Shown here: positions 17,467-64,000 of the stretch, one piece after another
Layout: every line of letters begins with the position of its first letter
Position numbering within the stretch: position 1 is the stretch's first letter
From: a virus
Taxonomy: Duplodnaviria > Caudoviricetes
Length of the DNA: 64,000 nt
Direction: 5' to 3' (one strand)
IMG/VR virus record: IMGVR_UViG_2513237266_000002
Location: 1 to 64,000 of that record
Made by a program: the position numbers and the translations under genes
The notes under the pieces: generated by a model
The model's input: only the letters and a program-made list of their open reading frames with translations
Database searches by the model: none
What the model was told of the DNA's origin: nothing

Positions 17467-17608
17467 CGATCATCACGCCCCTGTGGATGTGGTGATCACC
17501 ATTTTCAGGCACCGGGAATCATCCTTACTTTTATTTGAACAAAAGAGCCCGGTTGCCTGATCCCCTTCAATCACACACAGCGCCATCCGAACTATCGGAG
17601 GTGAGGCT

Positions 17609-17887
17609 ATGACCAGAATGAGCACCATTTACAGCAGACTTTCATATGGATCAGGAACCACGCTTGCCGGCTGCGGTGTATCAGCGAAGGCATATGCCGA
17701 AACAGCTAAAACAGCAAAAGAGGTGTCCTGGATGTTGGCCGACAGAATTGCAGGGTTAAGCCTGAGTGACTGGGCAATTATTGTCGGTATCGCCTGCACC
17801 GTTATCACCTGTGCAGTGAACTGGTATTACAGGAAAAAGGAAAGGGAGGATCGGCTTAATGGCAATGTCACCAAAGCTGAAGAATAA
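17609..17887 (+). CDS. Holin with dual-start motif (M-T-R-M)
   Basis: TM segment WAIIVGIACTVITCAVNWYY plus charged tail; precedes endolysin. Confidence 0.85.
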   Translation: MTRMSTIYSRLSYGSGTTLAGCGVSAKAYAETAKTAKEVSWMLADRIAGLSLSDWAIIVGIACTVITCAVNWYYRKKEREDRLNGNVTKAEE

Positions 17888-18407
17888 ACTGAGCGCAGCG
17901 GTCGTTGGCTTGATTCTTGCGGGGGCTTCTGCACCTGTGATTCTCGATCAGTTTCTTAATGAGAAAGAGGGTAATAGCCTGACGGCATACCGCGACGGTG
18001 GCGGACTCTGGACCATTTGCCGTGGCGCCACGATGGTTGATGGTAAGCCAGTAGTTCAGGGCATGAGGCTGTCTTCTGAGAAATGCTCCCAGGTAAACGC
18101 CATAGAACGCGACAAAGCGCTGGCGTGGGTTGAGCGAAATATCAAGGTACCACTGACCGAACCACAGAAAGCCGGGATCGCGTCTTTCTGCCCATATAAC
18201 ATCGGCCCCGGAAAATGTTTCCCATCTACGTTCTATAAGCGAATAAATGCTGGCGACCGTAAAGGTGCTTGTGAAGCGATCCGCTGGTGGATTAAAGACG
18301 GTGGCCGCGACTGTCGTCTGACCAAAGGCCAGAAAAACGGCTGCTACGGGCAGGTAGAAAGGCGAGACCAGGAAAGCGCGCTGGCGTGCTGGGGGATAGG
18401 CCAGTGA
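17859..18407 (+). CDS. SAR endolysin (T4-lysozyme-like muramidase)
   Basis: N-terminal SAR segment; EG..AYRD..WTICRG catalytic E-D-T triad. Confidence 0.92.
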
Positions 18408-47801: not shown

Positions 47802-48980
47802 TCACTTCTTCATTCCAGCTTCCATTGCGGTTTTACCGTCATATTCAGCTAGGTATTTACCGTAATTGCGGAATAACATTTCCGGCCCTTTGTGGCCCAT
47901 CTGTCCAGCAAGCCAGAAGAGGTTAACGCCCTGGCTAATATGCTTGGTGGCGAACGTGTGACGGGTCTGGTACGGGTTACGGTAACGCACGCCTGCTTTT
48001 TTCAGTGTCGGTACCCATGCTTTTTTGCGGATCGCGTCGGCGTTCGCCCAGGGCTCCCCCGTTTTCGGATCGCTGAATATGAACTCACTTTTCATAAAGG
48101 TGTATTGTTTCTGCGCCTGCAGGGCTGCCAGCGCTTCACTGTTCAGCTCCACCTTACGGGTACCGGCTTTTGTCTTGGTACCTTTAAGTACCCCTACGAC
48201 ACTAGCTGCCTGTACGTGGGCGGTGTTCGCTATAGTATCGAGATCAGGCCAGCGCAGCGCGCACAGTTCGGAGCTCCGCAGACCGGTATTGAAGGCGAAG
48301 CGGAACAGGTTTTCCCATTCCGGGTATCTGCAGCTCTGGTAAATAGCGAGGGTTTCCGCTGGCGTGAACGGGTCAACCACGTAATCGTCGGCGCTTGGAC
48401 TGTTGTCGATCACATGGTACCGGCTGGCACTGACAAGGGTTACCGGGTTAATGGTCAGCAGACCATCCGTAACAGCTTCATCGATGGCGCTGCGTAGAAA
48501 CGAAAGGTTATTTCTGGTCGTTTTCAGCTTTGTTTTCCGGCTTGCTATCCAGTTTTTAAGGACCGCCGGCGTCAGTTCTGACACGTGGAGTTTATGTAGG
48601 GCTGACAGCGCCGACAGGCATTTTTCATAACCGTTGATAGTCGACGGGGACAGGTTGCGGTTCTGGCAGATTTTCAGGTACTCGTCCAGGTAAGACTTTA
48701 TATTTTTGGTCTTCTTCACTACCCCGAACAGCTCCAGCTTTTTGGAGTTGGGGAAATATTTCGCATATTCAAAGGTGCTACTGACGATCTGGTTTTGTAT
48801 CTCCCCGAGCAGGCGCTCGGCGTACTTCACACCGCGCGCGTTTGCTTCCATTTTGGAGAGGGGCTCCCGGCACAGAACCCCTTTGTATGTGAAAGTGATA
48901 ACCAGAGTGTCGCCAGTTTTATGCTGGCGGATGGTTACTCCTCTTGGGAGAGATAATGATCCTTGTTCTTTCTTGCCCAC
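47802..48980 (-). CDS. int: Tyrosine integrase, paralog of 1-1176
   Basis: TGLRSSEL, YQTRHTFAT, MGHKGPEMLFRNY. Confidence 0.95.
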   Translation of the reverse strand: MGKKEQGSLSLPRGVTIRQHKTGDTLVITFTYKGVLCREPLSKMEANARGVKYAERLLGEIQNQIVSSTFEYAKYFPNSKKLELFGVVKKTKNIKSYLDEYLKICQNRNLSPSTINGYEKCLSALSALHKLHVSELTPAVLKNWIASRKTKLKTTRNNLSFLRSAIDEAVTDGLLTINPVTLVSASRYHVIDNSPSADDYVVDPFTPAETLAIYQSCRYPEWENLFRFAFNTGLRSSELCALRWPDLDTIANTAHVQAASVVGVLKGTKTKAGTRKVELNSEALAALQAQKQYTFMKSEFIFSDPKTGEPWANADAIRKKAWVPTLKKAGVRYRNPYQTRHTFATKHISQGVNLFWLAGQMGHKGPEMLFRNYGKYLAEYDGKTAMEAGMKK

Positions 48981-58691: not shown

Positions 58692-59112
58692 TCATCAAGC
58701 CCTGCGGTTAACACCGTGGGGCTTTTGCGTTTCTGGAGGGTAAGAAAATGCACGGGTAGAACGGACAGACCGCAGTCGAAAGGCAATGCAGCAGTCATGA
58801 TGCTGCCCCGAGTCGCGTAATGGCGAGCCTGTGTAGTGATGGGTAAGGGTTCATAGATCAAAATAAGCTCCGGTAAAGCAGCGTGAATGCCAGATGCGCA
58901 CCGGTTATCAGCGGCGATGACGCGACAGCACCTCAAGGGCATGAGCGTGACCACTCCGGGAAGTGGTAAAGAATTTATAGCCTCGCTTATGCGGGGCTTT
59001 TCTATTTCAGGCCCACGGGAATCATCCGCTACGTGCTTTGTTGATAAATCCAGCCCGTGAAGCCTGACCCTTTCATCACACAGCGCCATCCGAAAAAATC
59101 GGGGGTGAGGCT

Positions 59113-59391
59113 ATGACCAGAATGAGCACCATTTACAGCAGACTTTCATATGGATCAGGAACCACGCTTGCCGGCTGCGGTGTATCAGCGAAGGCATATG
59201 CCGAAACAGCTAAAACAGCAAAAGAGGTGTCCTGGATGTTGGCCGACAGAATTGCAGGGTTAAGCCTGAGTGACTGGGCAATTATTGTCGGTATCGCATG
59301 CACTGTTATCACTTGTGCAGTGAACTGGTACTACAGGCAAAAGGAAAGGGAGGATCGGCTTAATGGCAATGTCACCAAAGCTGAAGAATAA
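59113..59391 (+). CDS. Holin, one substitution from 17609-17887
   Basis: Sequence identity with prophage 1 holin. Confidence 0.85.
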   Translation: MTRMSTIYSRLSYGSGTTLAGCGVSAKAYAETAKTAKEVSWMLADRIAGLSLSDWAIIVGIACTVITCAVNWYYRQKEREDRLNGNVTKAEE

Positions 59392-59911
59392 ACTGAGCGC
59401 AGCGGTCGTTGGTTTGATTCTTACGGGGGCTTCCGCGTCCGTGATTCTCGATCAGTTTCTGGATGAGAAAGAGGGTAACAGCACAACAGCGTACAAGGAC
59501 GGCTCTGGTATATGGACTATTTGCCGTGGCGCTACGATGGTTGATGGCAAGCCAGTAGTTCAGGGCATGAAGCTGTCTGCTGAGAAATGCGCTCAGGTAA
59601 ACGCCATTGAGCGTGATAAGGCACTGGCGTGGGTTGACCGAAATATCAAAGTACCACTGACCGAACCACAGAGAGCGGGTATTGCGTCATTTTGTCCTTA
59701 CAACATCGGCCCCGGAAAATGTTTCCCTTCCACGTTCTATAAGCGCATTAACGCTGGTGACCGTAAAGGAGCCTGTGAAGCGATCCGCTGGTGGATAAAA
59801 GATGGTGGCCGCGACTGTCGTCTGACCAAAGGCCAGAAAAATGGGTGCTATGGGCAGGTAGAACGACGAGACCAGGAAAGCGCATTGGCGTGCTGGGGGA
59901 TAGACCAGTGA
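59363..59911 (+). CDS. SAR endolysin
   Basis: Near-identical to 17859-18407. Confidence 0.92.
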   Translation: MAMSPKLKNKLSAAVVGLILTGASASVILDQFLDEKEGNSTTAYKDGSGIWTICRGATMVDGKPVVQGMKLSAEKCAQVNAIERDKALAWVDRNIKVPLTEPQRAGIASFCPYNIGPGKCFPSTFYKRINAGDRKGACEAIRWWIKDGGRDCRLTKGQKNGCYGQVERRDQESALACWGIDQ

Positions 59912-60432
59912 ACAGAAGCCTCATTGTTGTTGGGATGGCGGCCATCACCTTCATCGCTGTGCTCTTTGTGCTACTGGCGCGCAGCAATGCAGCGCTGACC
60001 ACGTCCGAGAGTGATAACCGGGTGCTGCGCAGTGACAACGCACTACAGGCGACGGTAATAACCACTCAGGCTTTCAACTTCAACCGGTTTAACCAGATAG
60101 CCGAAAACGCCAGCCGACTTAACTCACTTATTGATGTCAGCTCCGATAGCACGGTTATCGAATATAGGGAGATTCTCCATCGTGAAAAAACCTGTGATCT
60201 GCCTGTTCCTGCTGATATCTCTGGCGGGCTGCTCAGCTACGCGAACAGTTTACGTGCCAGCGCAATGCACACCGATTCCGGGAACGCTGACACAGTCGGT
60301 GATGGCGCCATTACCACCAACGCGCTGACGTATTGCCAGGCTGTTCTCTGGATCAAGCCGCTGCTGGCCGCCATCGAAAAAGCGAATAACCAGCTGGCTG
60401 GAATTCGTGAAATTGAAAAGGGCAGGCAATGA
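59908..60432 (+). CDS. i-spanin (Rz-like) with extended C-terminus
   Basis: N-terminal TM, coiled coil; GTGA overlap with endolysin. Confidence 0.8.
   Translation: MNRSLIVVGMAAITFIAVLFVLLARSNAALTTSESDNRVLRSDNALQATVITTQAFNFNRFNQIAENASRLNSLIDVSSDSTVIEYREILHREKTCDLPVPADISGGLLSYANSLRASAMHTDSGNADTVGDGAITTNALTYCQAVLWIKPLLAAIEKANNQLAGIREIEKGRQ
60182..60328 (+). CDS. Embedded o-spanin lipoprotein, short
   Basis: Lipobox LAGC, TRTVYVP, Pro-rich; +1 frame. Confidence 0.7.
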   Translation: MKKPVICLFLLISLAGCSATRTVYVPAQCTPIPGTLTQSVMAPLPPTR

Positions 60433-60499
60433 CTATTGCCAGCATGACATTACAAAAGCCGTTCACCGAGTGGCTTTGATAATGTTTTTTGAGTGAGGA

Positions 60500-61513
60500 T
60501 TGTTCAGTATGGCTTCGATAAAAGAATCCACTGATGCCAATGGACAATCAAAATATTACGTCCACTGGAAGGATGAAAAATCCGGTCATGGACGCCGCCG
60601 CATTTTTAAGAATATTGATGATGCCGCACATCTTTTCTGGCAAAAACAGAATATCGAGCTGGATTGTCGAACCGCCAGCTGGGCCGGAATAGACCATTCC
60701 TGGACTTTCCGAAAGTTAATTCTGTTTTATCTTGGCTATCAGGCTGGCAAGATGGAAAAAAATATCATACGGCTGTCGTCATATACGAAATGCCGTCACG
60801 ATCTTCTCGCTGTAGACGGGCCGATACTGGGAAAAAATATTCTCCATATCAGCCATCGCGATATCGTTGATTCGGTTCGCACCGGCTGCCATCGCTGGAT
60901 TCGTTCGGCTTTCTTCCTGCTGGTGGAAAAACGGCTCATCACTTTTAACCCTGTTGACCGTCCCGCGCGCCGGAAGCGTCGACCCATCACCATACCGCCA
61001 TCATCATCGGTCAGAGAGCTACTGAATAACGCGCCAGTTCGCGAGCGTATCGCGTGCTGGCTCGGGATTTGTGGCCTGCGCATCGGTGAGGCTCTGGCGG
61101 TTACTTATAACGACGTGTCAGCCGACTGGATCGACATTCGGGGGCATGTTGTTGATGGCGTTATACATGAGGGGCTGAAAAGAGGCGTGGAGCGCCGGGT
61201 ACGGATGCCGCGTGAGCTTTTCGCATTGCTGGATAAAAGTAAACTCGGTACCTCTGAGCCTCTTATCTGCAACCAGTTTACCGGAGCATGCCTCGCTACC
61301 AGCTACGGCACTCAGGGGGTTCTCGTCAGAACCCTGAACGACTATGGCATTAAGCGATTCCATCATCTTCGCCACTTTGCTGTATCTCGCCTGGCAAACA
61401 AAGGCGTCGATATTCTGAAGGTTTCTCGCCTCATTGGGCATTCAAACATCAAAACTACGATGGACGTTTACGGCCACCTGTTCGGGGAAGTGGTGGAGAT
61501 GGATTTAGACTGA
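60500..61513 (+). CDS. Second tyrosine recombinase in the late operon
   Basis: GLRIGEAL, FHHLRH, LIGHSNIKTTMDVY: full R-H-R-H-Y set. Confidence 0.9.
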   Translation: MFSMASIKESTDANGQSKYYVHWKDEKSGHGRRRIFKNIDDAAHLFWQKQNIELDCRTASWAGIDHSWTFRKLILFYLGYQAGKMEKNIIRLSSYTKCRHDLLAVDGPILGKNILHISHRDIVDSVRTGCHRWIRSAFFLLVEKRLITFNPVDRPARRKRRPITIPPSSSVRELLNNAPVRERIACWLGICGLRIGEALAVTYNDVSADWIDIRGHVVDGVIHEGLKRGVERRVRMPRELFALLDKSKLGTSEPLICNQFTGACLATSYGTQGVLVRTLNDYGIKRFHHLRHFAVSRLANKGVDILKVSRLIGHSNIKTTMDVYGHLFGEVVEMDLD

Positions 61514-61757
61514 GTTATCCACATAGTGGAAATATTAGGGCGATCCACTATCTCCCCATTCTGCGCGGCCTCCGGGCATTAAATCGCAGTTTTCCCGAAA
61601 AAAAGGATATGCCGCATTTTTACCCCCTCTGATATGCCGCACTTGGCACCAGAGAGGACGCGGCCTGCAAGCCAGAATTTGCCGCGTGATACGCCGCACC
61701 CGGATCGGTAAAATCGGATTTTGAACAAAAAATAATCACATTGACTTAGGCGGAAGT

Positions 61758-62360
61758 ATGGCTCCTAAAAAAAGCTTCAGAAAAGCCTACGTCGGTATCG
61801 TTATGGACATGGCATTAGCCCGTAGCAAAATCAGCAATCGGATGGTTGCTCAGCGCTTAGGTGTGGACGAGACGACGATCCGTCGCTGGCGTAAAGAGAA
61901 TATCGAGTTTGAGCGCGCTTTCACTGAGGCTCGCGAAGCTCTCAGAGAGAAAATAAACCGCGTCGCCGGTAAGAGCCTGGACGTTCGTAAACGGAAGGTT
62001 GTCACCACATCGCCGGATGGTGTGAAAACCACGATTGAAGATGTGCTGCCCACGCACAACGATATTGCTGTTTTCTCAAAGGTGCTCGGTCTTGGCACCA
62101 GCGTCTATAGCGAGGAAGAACGTCAGCGTGATGTGCTTCGCGAGGTGATGAAACACAAGGTGGCTGGGAAATACTCCGCGCTGGAGGCGGCGCAGCTGCT
62201 TGAGGCTGAGGGGGTAAAAGTTCCGACAACCCTGCTTATGGAGCTGGGAGCACCGAAAATTTTCGAACCGTTCAACAATATGGATGAGGCAGCCAAAGCC
62301 GACGCGGCGAACCTGACCCCGCAGGAAGCAGCAGATATCTACAAAAAATACATGGGCTGA
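61758..62360 (+). CDS. terS: Terminase small subunit (HTH N-terminus)
   Basis: VAQRLGVDETTIRRW..EF; LTPQEAADIYKKYMG tail; precedes terL. Confidence 0.75.
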   Translation: MAPKKSFRKAYVGIVMDMALARSKISNRMVAQRLGVDETTIRRWRKENIEFERAFTEAREALREKINRVAGKSLDVRKRKVVTTSPDGVKTTIEDVLPTHNDIAVFSKVLGLGTSVYSEEERQRDVLREVMKHKVAGKYSALEAAQLLEAEGVKVPTTLLMELGAPKIFEPFNNMDEAAKADAANLTPQEAADIYKKYMG

Positions 62361-62558
62361 AAAATGCAAAAACAGGCGTTTCGAACTAAAAAAACGCTAT
62401 GCACTTTTTGACCCGTTTTATGCACGTTTTATTCATCCCGATTTGACCACTTTTCTGTTCGAAACAGAGCCTTCACGCCGTTTGCGTGATGGGGGCTGTT
62501 GCGCCAGTGCGGGTAACGACCATTATGTTAAATCGGGGCGTTTTTGAGGAATTTTTCT

Positions 62559-64000
62559 GTGCCGATCCCGTTCCCCTTTGATTTCCGCAAACCGGACTAT
62601 ACCGCCGTGTTTGAGTGGAGAATGGAGAGGCTGGAGCGGATCAGGAAAGCGCCTGAAATGCTTCCGGCGCTCCGTGAGTTTTACCGTACTAACCCGGCCC
62701 AGTTCATCATCGACTGGGGCATGACGACGGACCCGCGTAACCTCGATTTCGGGCTTCCCGTGTCCATACCATTCTTGCTGTTTCCGAAACAGGAAGAGTG
62801 GATAAATTGGATTATGGATCGCCGCAAGGGGCTAGAGAACGGACTGACGGAAAAGAGTCGAGAAATGGGGTTAAGCTGGACCTCTATTGGGCTGGCCTGT
62901 TCGCTTTGCCTGTTCAACAAAGAAATGGTGATCGGGTTCGGTTCCCGTAAAGAGGAATATGTCGACAGTACCGGTAGCCCGAAAGCGCTGTTCTGGAAAG
63001 CGCGTAAATTCGTTGAAATGCTACCTGTCGAATTCCGGGGAGGTTGGAACTATAAGAAACATGCACCTTACATGCGAGTGGAGTTTCCGGAGAGCGGCTC
63101 GGTAATTACTGGGGAAGCTGGCGACAATATCGGACGTGGTGACCGCACCACCCTTTATTTCGTGGATGAGGCGGCATTCCTTAAGCGTCCTCAGCTTATC
63201 GAAGCATCTCTTTCGCAAACCACACGCTGTCGTATCGACCTCTCATCGGTCAACGGCATGGCTAATCCGTTCGCCCAGAAGCGGCACAGTGGGAAAATCC
63301 CTGTGTTTACTTTCCACTGGCGCAGCGATCCGCGCAAGGATGATGAGTGGTACCGCAAAGAATGCGACAAAATCGATAACCCCGTTGTTGTGGCACAGGA
63401 GCTCGACCTGAACTACAACGCGTCTGCCGAAGGTGTGCTGATTCCAAATGAATGGGTGCAGGCTGCCGTCGACGCGCATATCAAACTGGGTATTCAGCCA
63501 ACCGGCAAACGCCTGGGCGCAATGGACGTTGCCGACGAGGGCCGGGACAAAAACTCGTTTTCTACACGTCATGGTTTCCTGCTGGAGAATGTGCGCGAAT
63601 GGTCCGGTGTGGGCAGCGATATTTACCAGTCTGTTGAGAAAGTTTTCGGCTACTGCGACAAAGACAACCTCGAAGAGTATCGCTTTGACGAAGACGGCCT
63701 CGGCGCAGGTGTTCGTGGTGATGCAAGAGCCATCAACGAGCTACGCAGCGCCGCAAGTCGGCCAATGATACTTGCCACGCCTTTTCGTGGTAGTGGTGGC
63801 GTGTTCGACCCAGAAGACGAAGCCGTACGCGGTGACAACGGGCAAAATGCCCGACTTAATAAGGATTTCTTTGCTAACGCTAAAGCACAAAGCTGGTGGC
63901 ATCTACGCAAGCTTTTCAGGAATACCTACCGCGCAGTAGTTGAGGGTATGGACTATGACCCTGACGAAATCATTTCCATCAGCAGCACGATGAAAAGCAA
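62559..64000 (+). CDS. terL: Terminase large subunit (runs off window; absent from ORF track)
   Basis: GTG start, [14 protein letters not shown]..; [10 protein letters not shown] Walker A, FVDEAAF Walker [10 protein letters not shown] nuclease motif. Confidence 0.9.

Follow-up and report, generated by a model that had tools for sequence, protein, structure and literature searches.

Among the closest described counterparts of the system reported here is Cre-loxP of phage P1, which cyclises redundant DNA and resolves multimers. Partial parallels are found in the heterobivalent integrases (lambda Int and the Int proteins of Tn916 and Tn1549), in Xer recombination at the cer and psi sites, in the packaging regions of phages SPP1 (pac) and lambda (cosB), and in the helper-embedded phage-inducible chromosomal islands (PICIs) described by Tommasini, Mageeney & Williams 2023 (PMC10111431). 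The DNA analysed, referred to as the window, is the first 64,000 nucleotides of the 97.7-kb IMG/VR record IMGVR_UViG_2513237266_000002 (Duplodnaviria; Caudoviricetes) and contains two prophages. In one of these, a gene for a tyrosine recombinase lies between the spanin genes and the gene for the small terminase (TerS), and is followed by an inverted repeat and then by three direct repeats. Like Cre-loxP, the arrangement consists of one tyrosine recombinase gene and one palindromic site near the putative packaging (pac) site and the terminase of what is probably a headful phage, relatives of the gene sit in plasmid prophages, and the same job is proposed for it. Unlike Cre-loxP, the gene is strictly coupled to one TerS family, is also found in integrating phages with a separate Int and in a satellite, and is probably expressed late.

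The coupling to TerS is apparent from two surveys made in opposite directions. In the first, which started from the recombinase, approximately 65 viral contigs and 13 genomes encode the gene with TerS about 248 bp downstream, and the lysis cassettes upstream of it are variable. The second survey used an alignment of TerS as the query to remove ascertainment bias, and loci with enough upstream DNA were counted. The recombinase is located directly upstream at a distance of 228–270 bp in 75/75 of these loci, and no TerS of the phrog_26539 family lacking an upstream recombinase was found (0/75). The junction between the two genes is unbroken in all prophage loci seen, which number more than 150. 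The original prediction, made from the sequence alone, had placed the recombinase and its site next to the terminase, which agrees with this synteny and with the assignment of the direct repeats to TerS described below. It had also named an independent inserted element as the finding that would speak against it; the 75/75 linkage, together with the lack of flanking repeats and of empty sites, points the other way. That selection keeps the recombinase-core pair and the pac-TerS pair side by side at the packaging origin is well supported.

A few loci deviate from this layout or carry doubtful labels. Yersinia phage YP3 (PV092592, L001; 9005–9150) keeps the recombinase and the 82-bp block that follows it, and this block runs straight on into the terL leader. 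Both terS and the pac repeats are missing, the gap extending from AAATCGCA into that leader; the inspected stretch of YP3 has no gene with a small-terminase annotation, and the loss represents either a real deletion or an assembly fault. The entries labelled 'Elizabethkingia phage EKP1' (OM284015, L002) and 'Chryseobacterium sp. 18061' (CACSKA010000001, L096) encode an enterobacterial-type lambdoid module with 72–77% protein identity, and these host labels may result from contamination or misassignment.

The inverted repeat begins 9 nt past the stop codon of the recombinase and has two 8-bp arms that are 100% complementary and 13 nt apart. The predicted palindrome with perfect 8-bp ends, readable as 11-7-11, is present as described and occurs once in the record, in which a second core copy was found neither by fuzzy match nor by geometry. 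An invertible or excisable segment was rejected for want of this second copy. In three host genomes, an attB-like second core copy was not found with up to 3 mismatches; each host genome searched has the core site only once, as does the record. The repeat is part of a non-coding block of 82 bp that is 80–90% identical in loci where identity at third codon positions of the gene drops to 40–57%. This block is the mosaic joint of the recombinase block and the TerS block, with the joint located at the motif AAATCGCAGTTTT, and all rec1-type loci inspected have this motif without a change.

The palindrome is perfect in 63/64 loci whose recombinase is at least 94% identical, and its left arm drifts by 1–2 bases in loci with a 70–80% identical recombinase. 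It reads ATATAGC-N7-GCTATAT in the group with 55–59% identity, GTAAGGAG-N11-CTCCTTAC after a 45% identical paralogue, and TTTAACC-N14-GGTTAAA in Arsenophonus. Its position and AT-rich centre are kept across recombinase lineages and the arms differ. Because the arms change with the recombinase lineage, the inverted repeat is read as the putative core site of the recombinase itself, at which catalysis would take place. Its conservation with the gene, on which the original prediction depended, is borne out by identity above the synonymous rate and by arms that follow the recombinase lineage. The imperfect inverted half-sites of core type around an AT-rich centre resemble those of the heterobivalent integrases, and the 8-bp arms with a 13-nt centre, at best an imperfect 11-7-11, are unlike the 34-bp 13-8-13 sites of Cre type. 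Two other roles for the post-stop region were rejected. An RNA element or terminator is not indicated by folding, as there is no RNA-structure signal (z −0.63 vs shuffled sequence) and the 8-bp repeat takes no part in the fold. The match to a DnaA box that had been noted as abutting the palindrome is present (TTATCCACA at 61515), but it is treated as a chance occurrence and not as a functional element because relatives read TTAACCACA, TAACCCACA or TTAGCCAGA and, by our estimate, chance alone should produce approximately 0.75 DnaA-box-like matches in a record of this size.

The three direct repeats begin 55 bp from the palindrome and are the only exact matches to GATAYGCCGCA in the 64 kb, all within 93 bp. 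When one mismatch is allowed, 7 matches are found vs 2.2 expected, a number reached by 0/100 shuffles. Collections of viral, genomic and metagenomic sequences yielded 86 distinct loci with the recombinase-TerS pair for comparison. Repeats of the GATAYGCCGCA type (type A) accompany the TerS helix DETTIRRWRK in 51/51 loci, and repeats of the A[AT][CT]TCCGCA type (type B) accompany the helix DEATIRNWRK in 32/32. The repeat type tracks the helix-turn-helix of TerS in all 83 of these 83 loci and does so across the recombinase classes of at least 94%, 70–80% and 55–60% identity. As the repeats co-vary with the TerS helix independently of the recombinase type, they are read as putative recognition (pac) sites of TerS. 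The repeats listed in the original prediction next to the recombinase are present, but they are read as sites of TerS and not of the recombinase. Short repeats upstream of terS that co-vary with its DNA-binding helix are reminiscent of the SPP1 pac and lambda cosB regions, which unlike this locus have no recombinase. Four viral contigs start within the intergenic region, at −17, −24, −83 and −211 from terS; these starts are scattered and give no position for a pac cut.

Features of the recombinase-TerS locus and of the satellite in the same record (window positions unless marked otherwise)
Feature	Position	Strand	Remarks
Rz-like spanin	59791–60432		Upstream of recombinase; phrog_214
Long hairpin of the CATTAC...GTAATG type, followed by a T-run	60448–60490	+	Terminator-like 5' module boundary, just upstream of the recombinase ribosome-binding site
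Tyrosine recombinase, 334 amino acids	60509–61513	+	ATG 60509, TGA 61511–61513; PF00589
Conserved non-coding block, 82 bp	61514–61595	+	Holds the core site; ends with motif AAATCGCAGTTTT
Putative core recombination site	61523–61551	.	ATAGTGGA (61523–61530), 13 nt, TCCACTAT (61544–61551); readable as 11-7-11
Three direct repeats GATAYGCCGCA, putative TerS recognition (pac) sites	61606–61698	+	Starts at 61606, 61631 and 61688
Small terminase (TerS), 200 amino acids, N-terminal helix-turn-helix	61758–62360	+	phrog_26539, E 1e-22
Large terminase (TerL)	62544–64000	+	Reading frame continues to 64175 of the record, beyond the window; phrog_2, E 5e-26
Satellite, 11.9 kb, in the baseplate J gene	80361–92252 of the record, beyond the window (L081)		17-bp direct repeat ATCAGTGCGCCTGATTA
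Recombinase paralogue, 45% identical	90081–91106 of the record		In the late zone of the satellite

The gene downstream of the repeats can be taken as a true small terminase on comparison with annotated proteins. The annotated TerS proteins of phages yong1 and 611R5 have the same C-terminal tail, NLTPQEAADIYKKYMG, but are otherwise unrelated to it, and the TerL proteins of these phages are 82–83% identical to the TerL here. The family alignment exhibits a conserved N-terminal helix-turn-helix and a conserved central ALEAAQLLE motif. The C-terminal tail (window 62310–62360) swaps with the TerL type, with another tail common to L169 and LS-2018a, and such a swap would be a neat marker of TerS-TerL contact. 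The phrog_26539 profile is found in 1/401 genomes of an order-level genome sample, too sparse a yield to be informative. The TerL assignment agrees with relatives of 83–91% identity that are annotated as TerL (tblastn) and with the portal gene that is next, though the true start may lie further in than 62544. In relatives, the head module consists of the portal followed by an SPP1 gp7 / Mu F-like gene. This head module, and the P22-like TerL found beside the same TerS family in phiSG1, suggests headful packaging on the basis of what is known of these families. A metagenome contig (ERZ773113 NODE-2319, L186; 4864–7175) differs in that terL stops after 213 codons and is followed by the baseplate J gene (97% identity), representing either a deletion variant or a chimeric assembly.

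The recombinase open reading frame (ORF) is assigned to the tyrosine recombinases by Pfam (PF00589, E 2.5e-15) and by phrog_1 (integrase, E 3e-29). A search of the whole record with the protein matched only the recombinase itself and the 45% paralogue and missed the prophage integrase at 47802–48980, and the description of the gene as an intact recombinase unlike Int, between the spanins and terS, stands in every part. When 17 homologues with 43–100% identity are aligned, the catalytic residues R191, K224, H285, R288, H311 and Y321 show no variation. The ratio of nonsynonymous to synonymous substitution rates (dN/dS) is 0.09–0.15 against relatives of 60–79% identity and 0.04–0.07 against those of 97–99%. 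The gene is unbroken and evolves under purifying selection.

The AlphaFold (AF2) model of the protein has a predicted local distance difference test (pLDDT) of 88 and contains a core-binding and a catalytic domain plus an extra domain at the N-terminus. This domain comprises three strands and a helix (residues 3–52; AF2 models with pLDDT 85–93) and, when modelled alone (pLDDT 81), has the sheet-plus-helix topology seen in arm-binding, AP2-like domains. A wide VIA search with the domain alone returned weak Z-scores of 4.6–5.0 to AP2/GCC-box entries among generic sheet-plus-helix matches of up to Z 6.1, and Foldseek gave no significant match to it. For the protein, Foldseek ranks Tn1549 Int and full-length lambda Int at the top (4e-9 to 9e-9), with Cre at 2e-5. 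A profile search against PDB sequences matched Tn1549 Int, XerC-like proteins and IntI4, and Cre was absent among its matches. VIA analysis of residues 63–334 produced Z-scores of 13–16.6 to integrase/Xer catalytic domains and of 12.7–13.7 to Cre (12.7–16.6 overall); since these scores are similar for many recombinases, the superfamily fold alone cannot place the protein. The recombinase-fold repressors YopR, MrpR and SroF are also present in the structural match list. As modelled, the protein is an integrase-type recombinase without kinship to Cre in sequence or domain make-up, and the earlier designation 'Cre-like' fails on the missing sequence match, the weaker Foldseek score and the extra N-terminal domain, which the two-domain Cre, Dre and VCre do not have. 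The best structural and sequence matches are to the heterobivalent integrases, and the three-domain layout with a predicted N-terminal strand-strand-strand-helix resembles theirs. Unlike these, the locus has no attB partner or integration junctions in the loci seen and the three host genomes, no arm sites were identified, the nearby repeats belonging to TerS, and no Xis-like gene is evident.

The gene order holin-lysozyme-spanin-recombinase-TerS-TerL recurs with distant recombinases. Relative to the protein here, the recombinase is 43% identical in Yersinia pestis plasmid pTP33, 35% in Arsenophonus plasmids, 31% in Erwinia phage LS-2018a and 24% in the Sodalis phage-plasmid phiSG1, which carries two modules and a P22-like TerL. 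With pTP33 as the query, plasmids of Erwinia tracheiphila encode recombinases of 30–33% identity to the pTP33 protein. The phrog_26539 profile matches gp01 of phiSG1 (E 1.5e-126) and the corresponding protein of LS-2018a (E 1.5e-86). The pairing of recombinase and TerS persists at 24–43% identity with three unrelated TerL types and, judged from these sequences, is old. These distant relatives are plasmid prophages with Rep and Par genes, in which integration is not the job of the recombinase. Plasmid pTP33 has been described as phage-plasmid-like (bioRxiv 10.64898/2026.10.03.756212). Such non-integrating relatives strengthen the analogy with Cre-lox of P1. The phage-plasmid relatives also encode a serine recombinase of the DNA invertase/resolvase type between terL and portal (L246 8243–8848; L330 6724–7326; L331 6676–7281).

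The 45% paralogue is encoded by a satellite that interrupts the baseplate J gene of the same record. The J gene is split and the 17-bp direct repeat is present at 80361 and 92236. The satellite carries a P4-type integrase, a second integrase-like gene and a primase, and holds copies of the helper baseplate hub and W genes with 79% DNA identity to 76409–77831. Behind the paralogue come a palindrome of its own, GATAYGCCGCA-like repeats of helper type that lie in both orientations, and a gene for a 174-amino-acid helix-turn-helix protein. This three-gene cassette recurs in three other loci. BLASTP identified no TerS homologue for the 174-amino-acid protein, and hhalign against TerS gave a weak 30% probability over 33 columns covering the helix-turn-helix only. 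Helper-embedded satellites copy the packaging-site region of their helper, and PICIs are reportedly packaged as phage-length concatemers (PMC10111431). Like those PICIs, the satellite lies in one of its helper's late genes and has captured late genes and a copy of the packaging site. Unlike them, for which a cos-like shared region of 258 bp and no recombinase is described, it has a paralogous recombinase and its own palindrome beside the helper-type repeats.

Upstream of the recombinase, a terminator scan identified a stem at 60455–60477 plus a T-run. Of 70 distinct sequences upstream of the gene, most have the hairpin, and its stem shows compensatory changes such as GCCA/TGGC to GCCC/GGGC and GGCCAC/GTGGC. 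Another version of the upstream region carries a canonical terminator and, after it, a CATTACGATGGG...CCCATCGTAATG hairpin. No recognisable promoter was found between the hairpin and the start codon of the recombinase. A gene located behind a conserved terminator without a promoter is probably late, and the recombinase is probably read by antiterminated late transcription. Contigs from RNA libraries (public runs) extend across the recombinase, terS and terL. In two studies such contigs begin at 60496 and 60521, at the 5' end of the recombinase, though neither transcript starts nor DNA ends or joints can be read from contigs. In the window, the lysis cassettes of the two prophages (59005–59911 and 17503–18407) are 89% identical over 911 bp, and the prophages might recombine with each other through this similarity.

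The reading preferred here, to which a probability of about one half is given, is that an active recombinase with its own core site beside the pac sites of TerS carries out a monomerisation of genome copies by analogy with Cre-lox. The recombinase and the inverted repeat after its stop codon would form an enzyme-core site pair, the GATAYGCCGCA repeats would be recognised by the neighbouring TerS, and both protein-site pairs would make up a single conserved module, located where packaging starts in a lineage of headful phages of the Enterobacterales, in phage-plasmids and in at least one satellite. As each genome has a single site, the enzyme can only act between copies of that genome, and it would recombine the sites on the same or on sister genome copies. 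Terminally redundant or concatemeric packaged DNA, or replication multimers, would be turned into monomer circles; the candidate substrates are terminal redundancy, packaged concatemers, which are likely for the 12-kb satellite, and replication multimers. Proximity to pac is what the logic of Cre-lox cyclisation would predict. Several points weigh against this proposal. Should packaging proceed from pac in the direction of terS and terL, as it does in P22 and SPP1, the terminal redundancy of the first headful would not include a site that lies upstream of pac. The probable late expression fits poorly, since cyclisation after injection needs an early enzyme. The extra N-terminal domain and the closeness to Tn1549 and lambda Int hint at a more complex, directional reaction. 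In the most distant members, phiSG1 and LS-2018a, no clear inverted repeat was found after the stop codon, and phiSG1 encodes RecET besides its recombinase module.

A more elaborate version, offered tentatively and regarded as unlikely, has packaging initiation and site-specific recombination mechanically coupled, with the TerS ring on the pac repeats serving as accessory architecture. The ring would impose selectivity for resolution, as PepA/ArgR do at cer/psi, or would let the enzyme create the packaging substrate. Such coupling would explain why the recombinase family is never parted from the TerS family in phages, phage-plasmids and satellites. As at cer and psi, there are about 200 bp on one side of the core site for an oligomeric accessory protein, here possibly TerS. 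The likeness is purely architectural, a single phage enzyme replacing the host XerCD.

An alternative with a small chance of being correct runs in the opposite direction: a late recombinase would fuse monomer circles of the phage or satellite at the single site, giving DNA longer than unit length for headful packaging. The late-operon position behind a terminator is consistent with this, as is the satellite, which is only 12 kb and keeps the paralogue in its late zone. The concatemeric packaging reported for PICIs (PMC10111431) also fits. The original prediction had remarked on the lack of a Red/RecET/Erf-type recombinase; the ten larger ORFs of the early and middle regions include none, the early region likewise yielded no single-strand-annealing or exonuclease gene, and this too would favour a need for multimers. 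The absence stands as an observation but not as the explanation, because phiSG1 encodes RecET as well as the module. A site that makes multimers need not adjoin pac, yet the adjacency survives mosaic exchange, and simple site-specific systems favour resolution over fusion.

It is quite unlikely that the module serves to keep phage-plasmids monomeric by dimer resolution and is carried along with TerS in integrated prophages. The family is common in non-integrating phage-plasmids with Par and Rep (pTP33, the Arsenophonus and Erwinia plasmids, phiSG1), but these plasmids also have a serine recombinase, strict adjacency to TerS is not needed for this task, the satellite retains a copy, and purifying selection in integrated prophages is strong. 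A DNA-binding regulator, in which the protein on the palindrome controls access to pac or expression of terS with catalysis secondary, has the distance of 55 bp to the TerS repeats and the structural matches to YopR, MrpR and SroF, the recombinase-fold repressors of SPbeta-like phages, in its favour. It is nonetheless very unlikely, as all six catalytic residues are invariant in the homologues and, to our knowledge, known recombinase-fold repressors have lost theirs. A second integrase, with the region of about 245 bp as attP for another chromosomal site, would suit the integrase-type architecture, the possible arm-binding domain and the roughly attP-sized non-coding region; it is largely refuted, and highly improbable, given the intact junction with TerS in more than 150 prophage loci, the lack of an attB-like copy in the three host genomes, the presence of the module in non-integrating plasmids and repeats that track TerS and not the recombinase. 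Equally improbable is an independent mobile cassette or moron lying by chance between lysis and packaging genes, for although the YP3 homology begins at the start codon and stops after the 82-bp block and the upstream lysis cassettes vary, it is largely excluded by a linkage without exception in the TerS family (0/75 lacking the recombinase), pairing down to 24% identity with three TerL types, and the lack of flanking repeats and empty sites.

What is new in this auxiliary phage recombinase-site system of the Cre-lox sort is its strict coupling to a single TerS family, which holds in integrated phages, in phage-plasmids and in a satellite. A full-text literature search found no description of a recombinase-TerS module. 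For annotation, such genes should not be called prophage integrases nor be used for the prediction of attachment sites. The lineages with different core sites represent a set of possibly orthogonal recombinase-site pairs that could be used as tools. If the proposed function is true, the module would be a second, independently evolved system of the Cre-lox type in temperate phages of the Enterobacterales, in phage-plasmids including Yersinia pestis pTP33, and in a helper-embedded satellite. It would explain how a 12-kb satellite packed as concatemers returns to monomer form, and it would mean that integrating headful phages, too, use a dedicated site-specific step for genome topology at the packaging origin.

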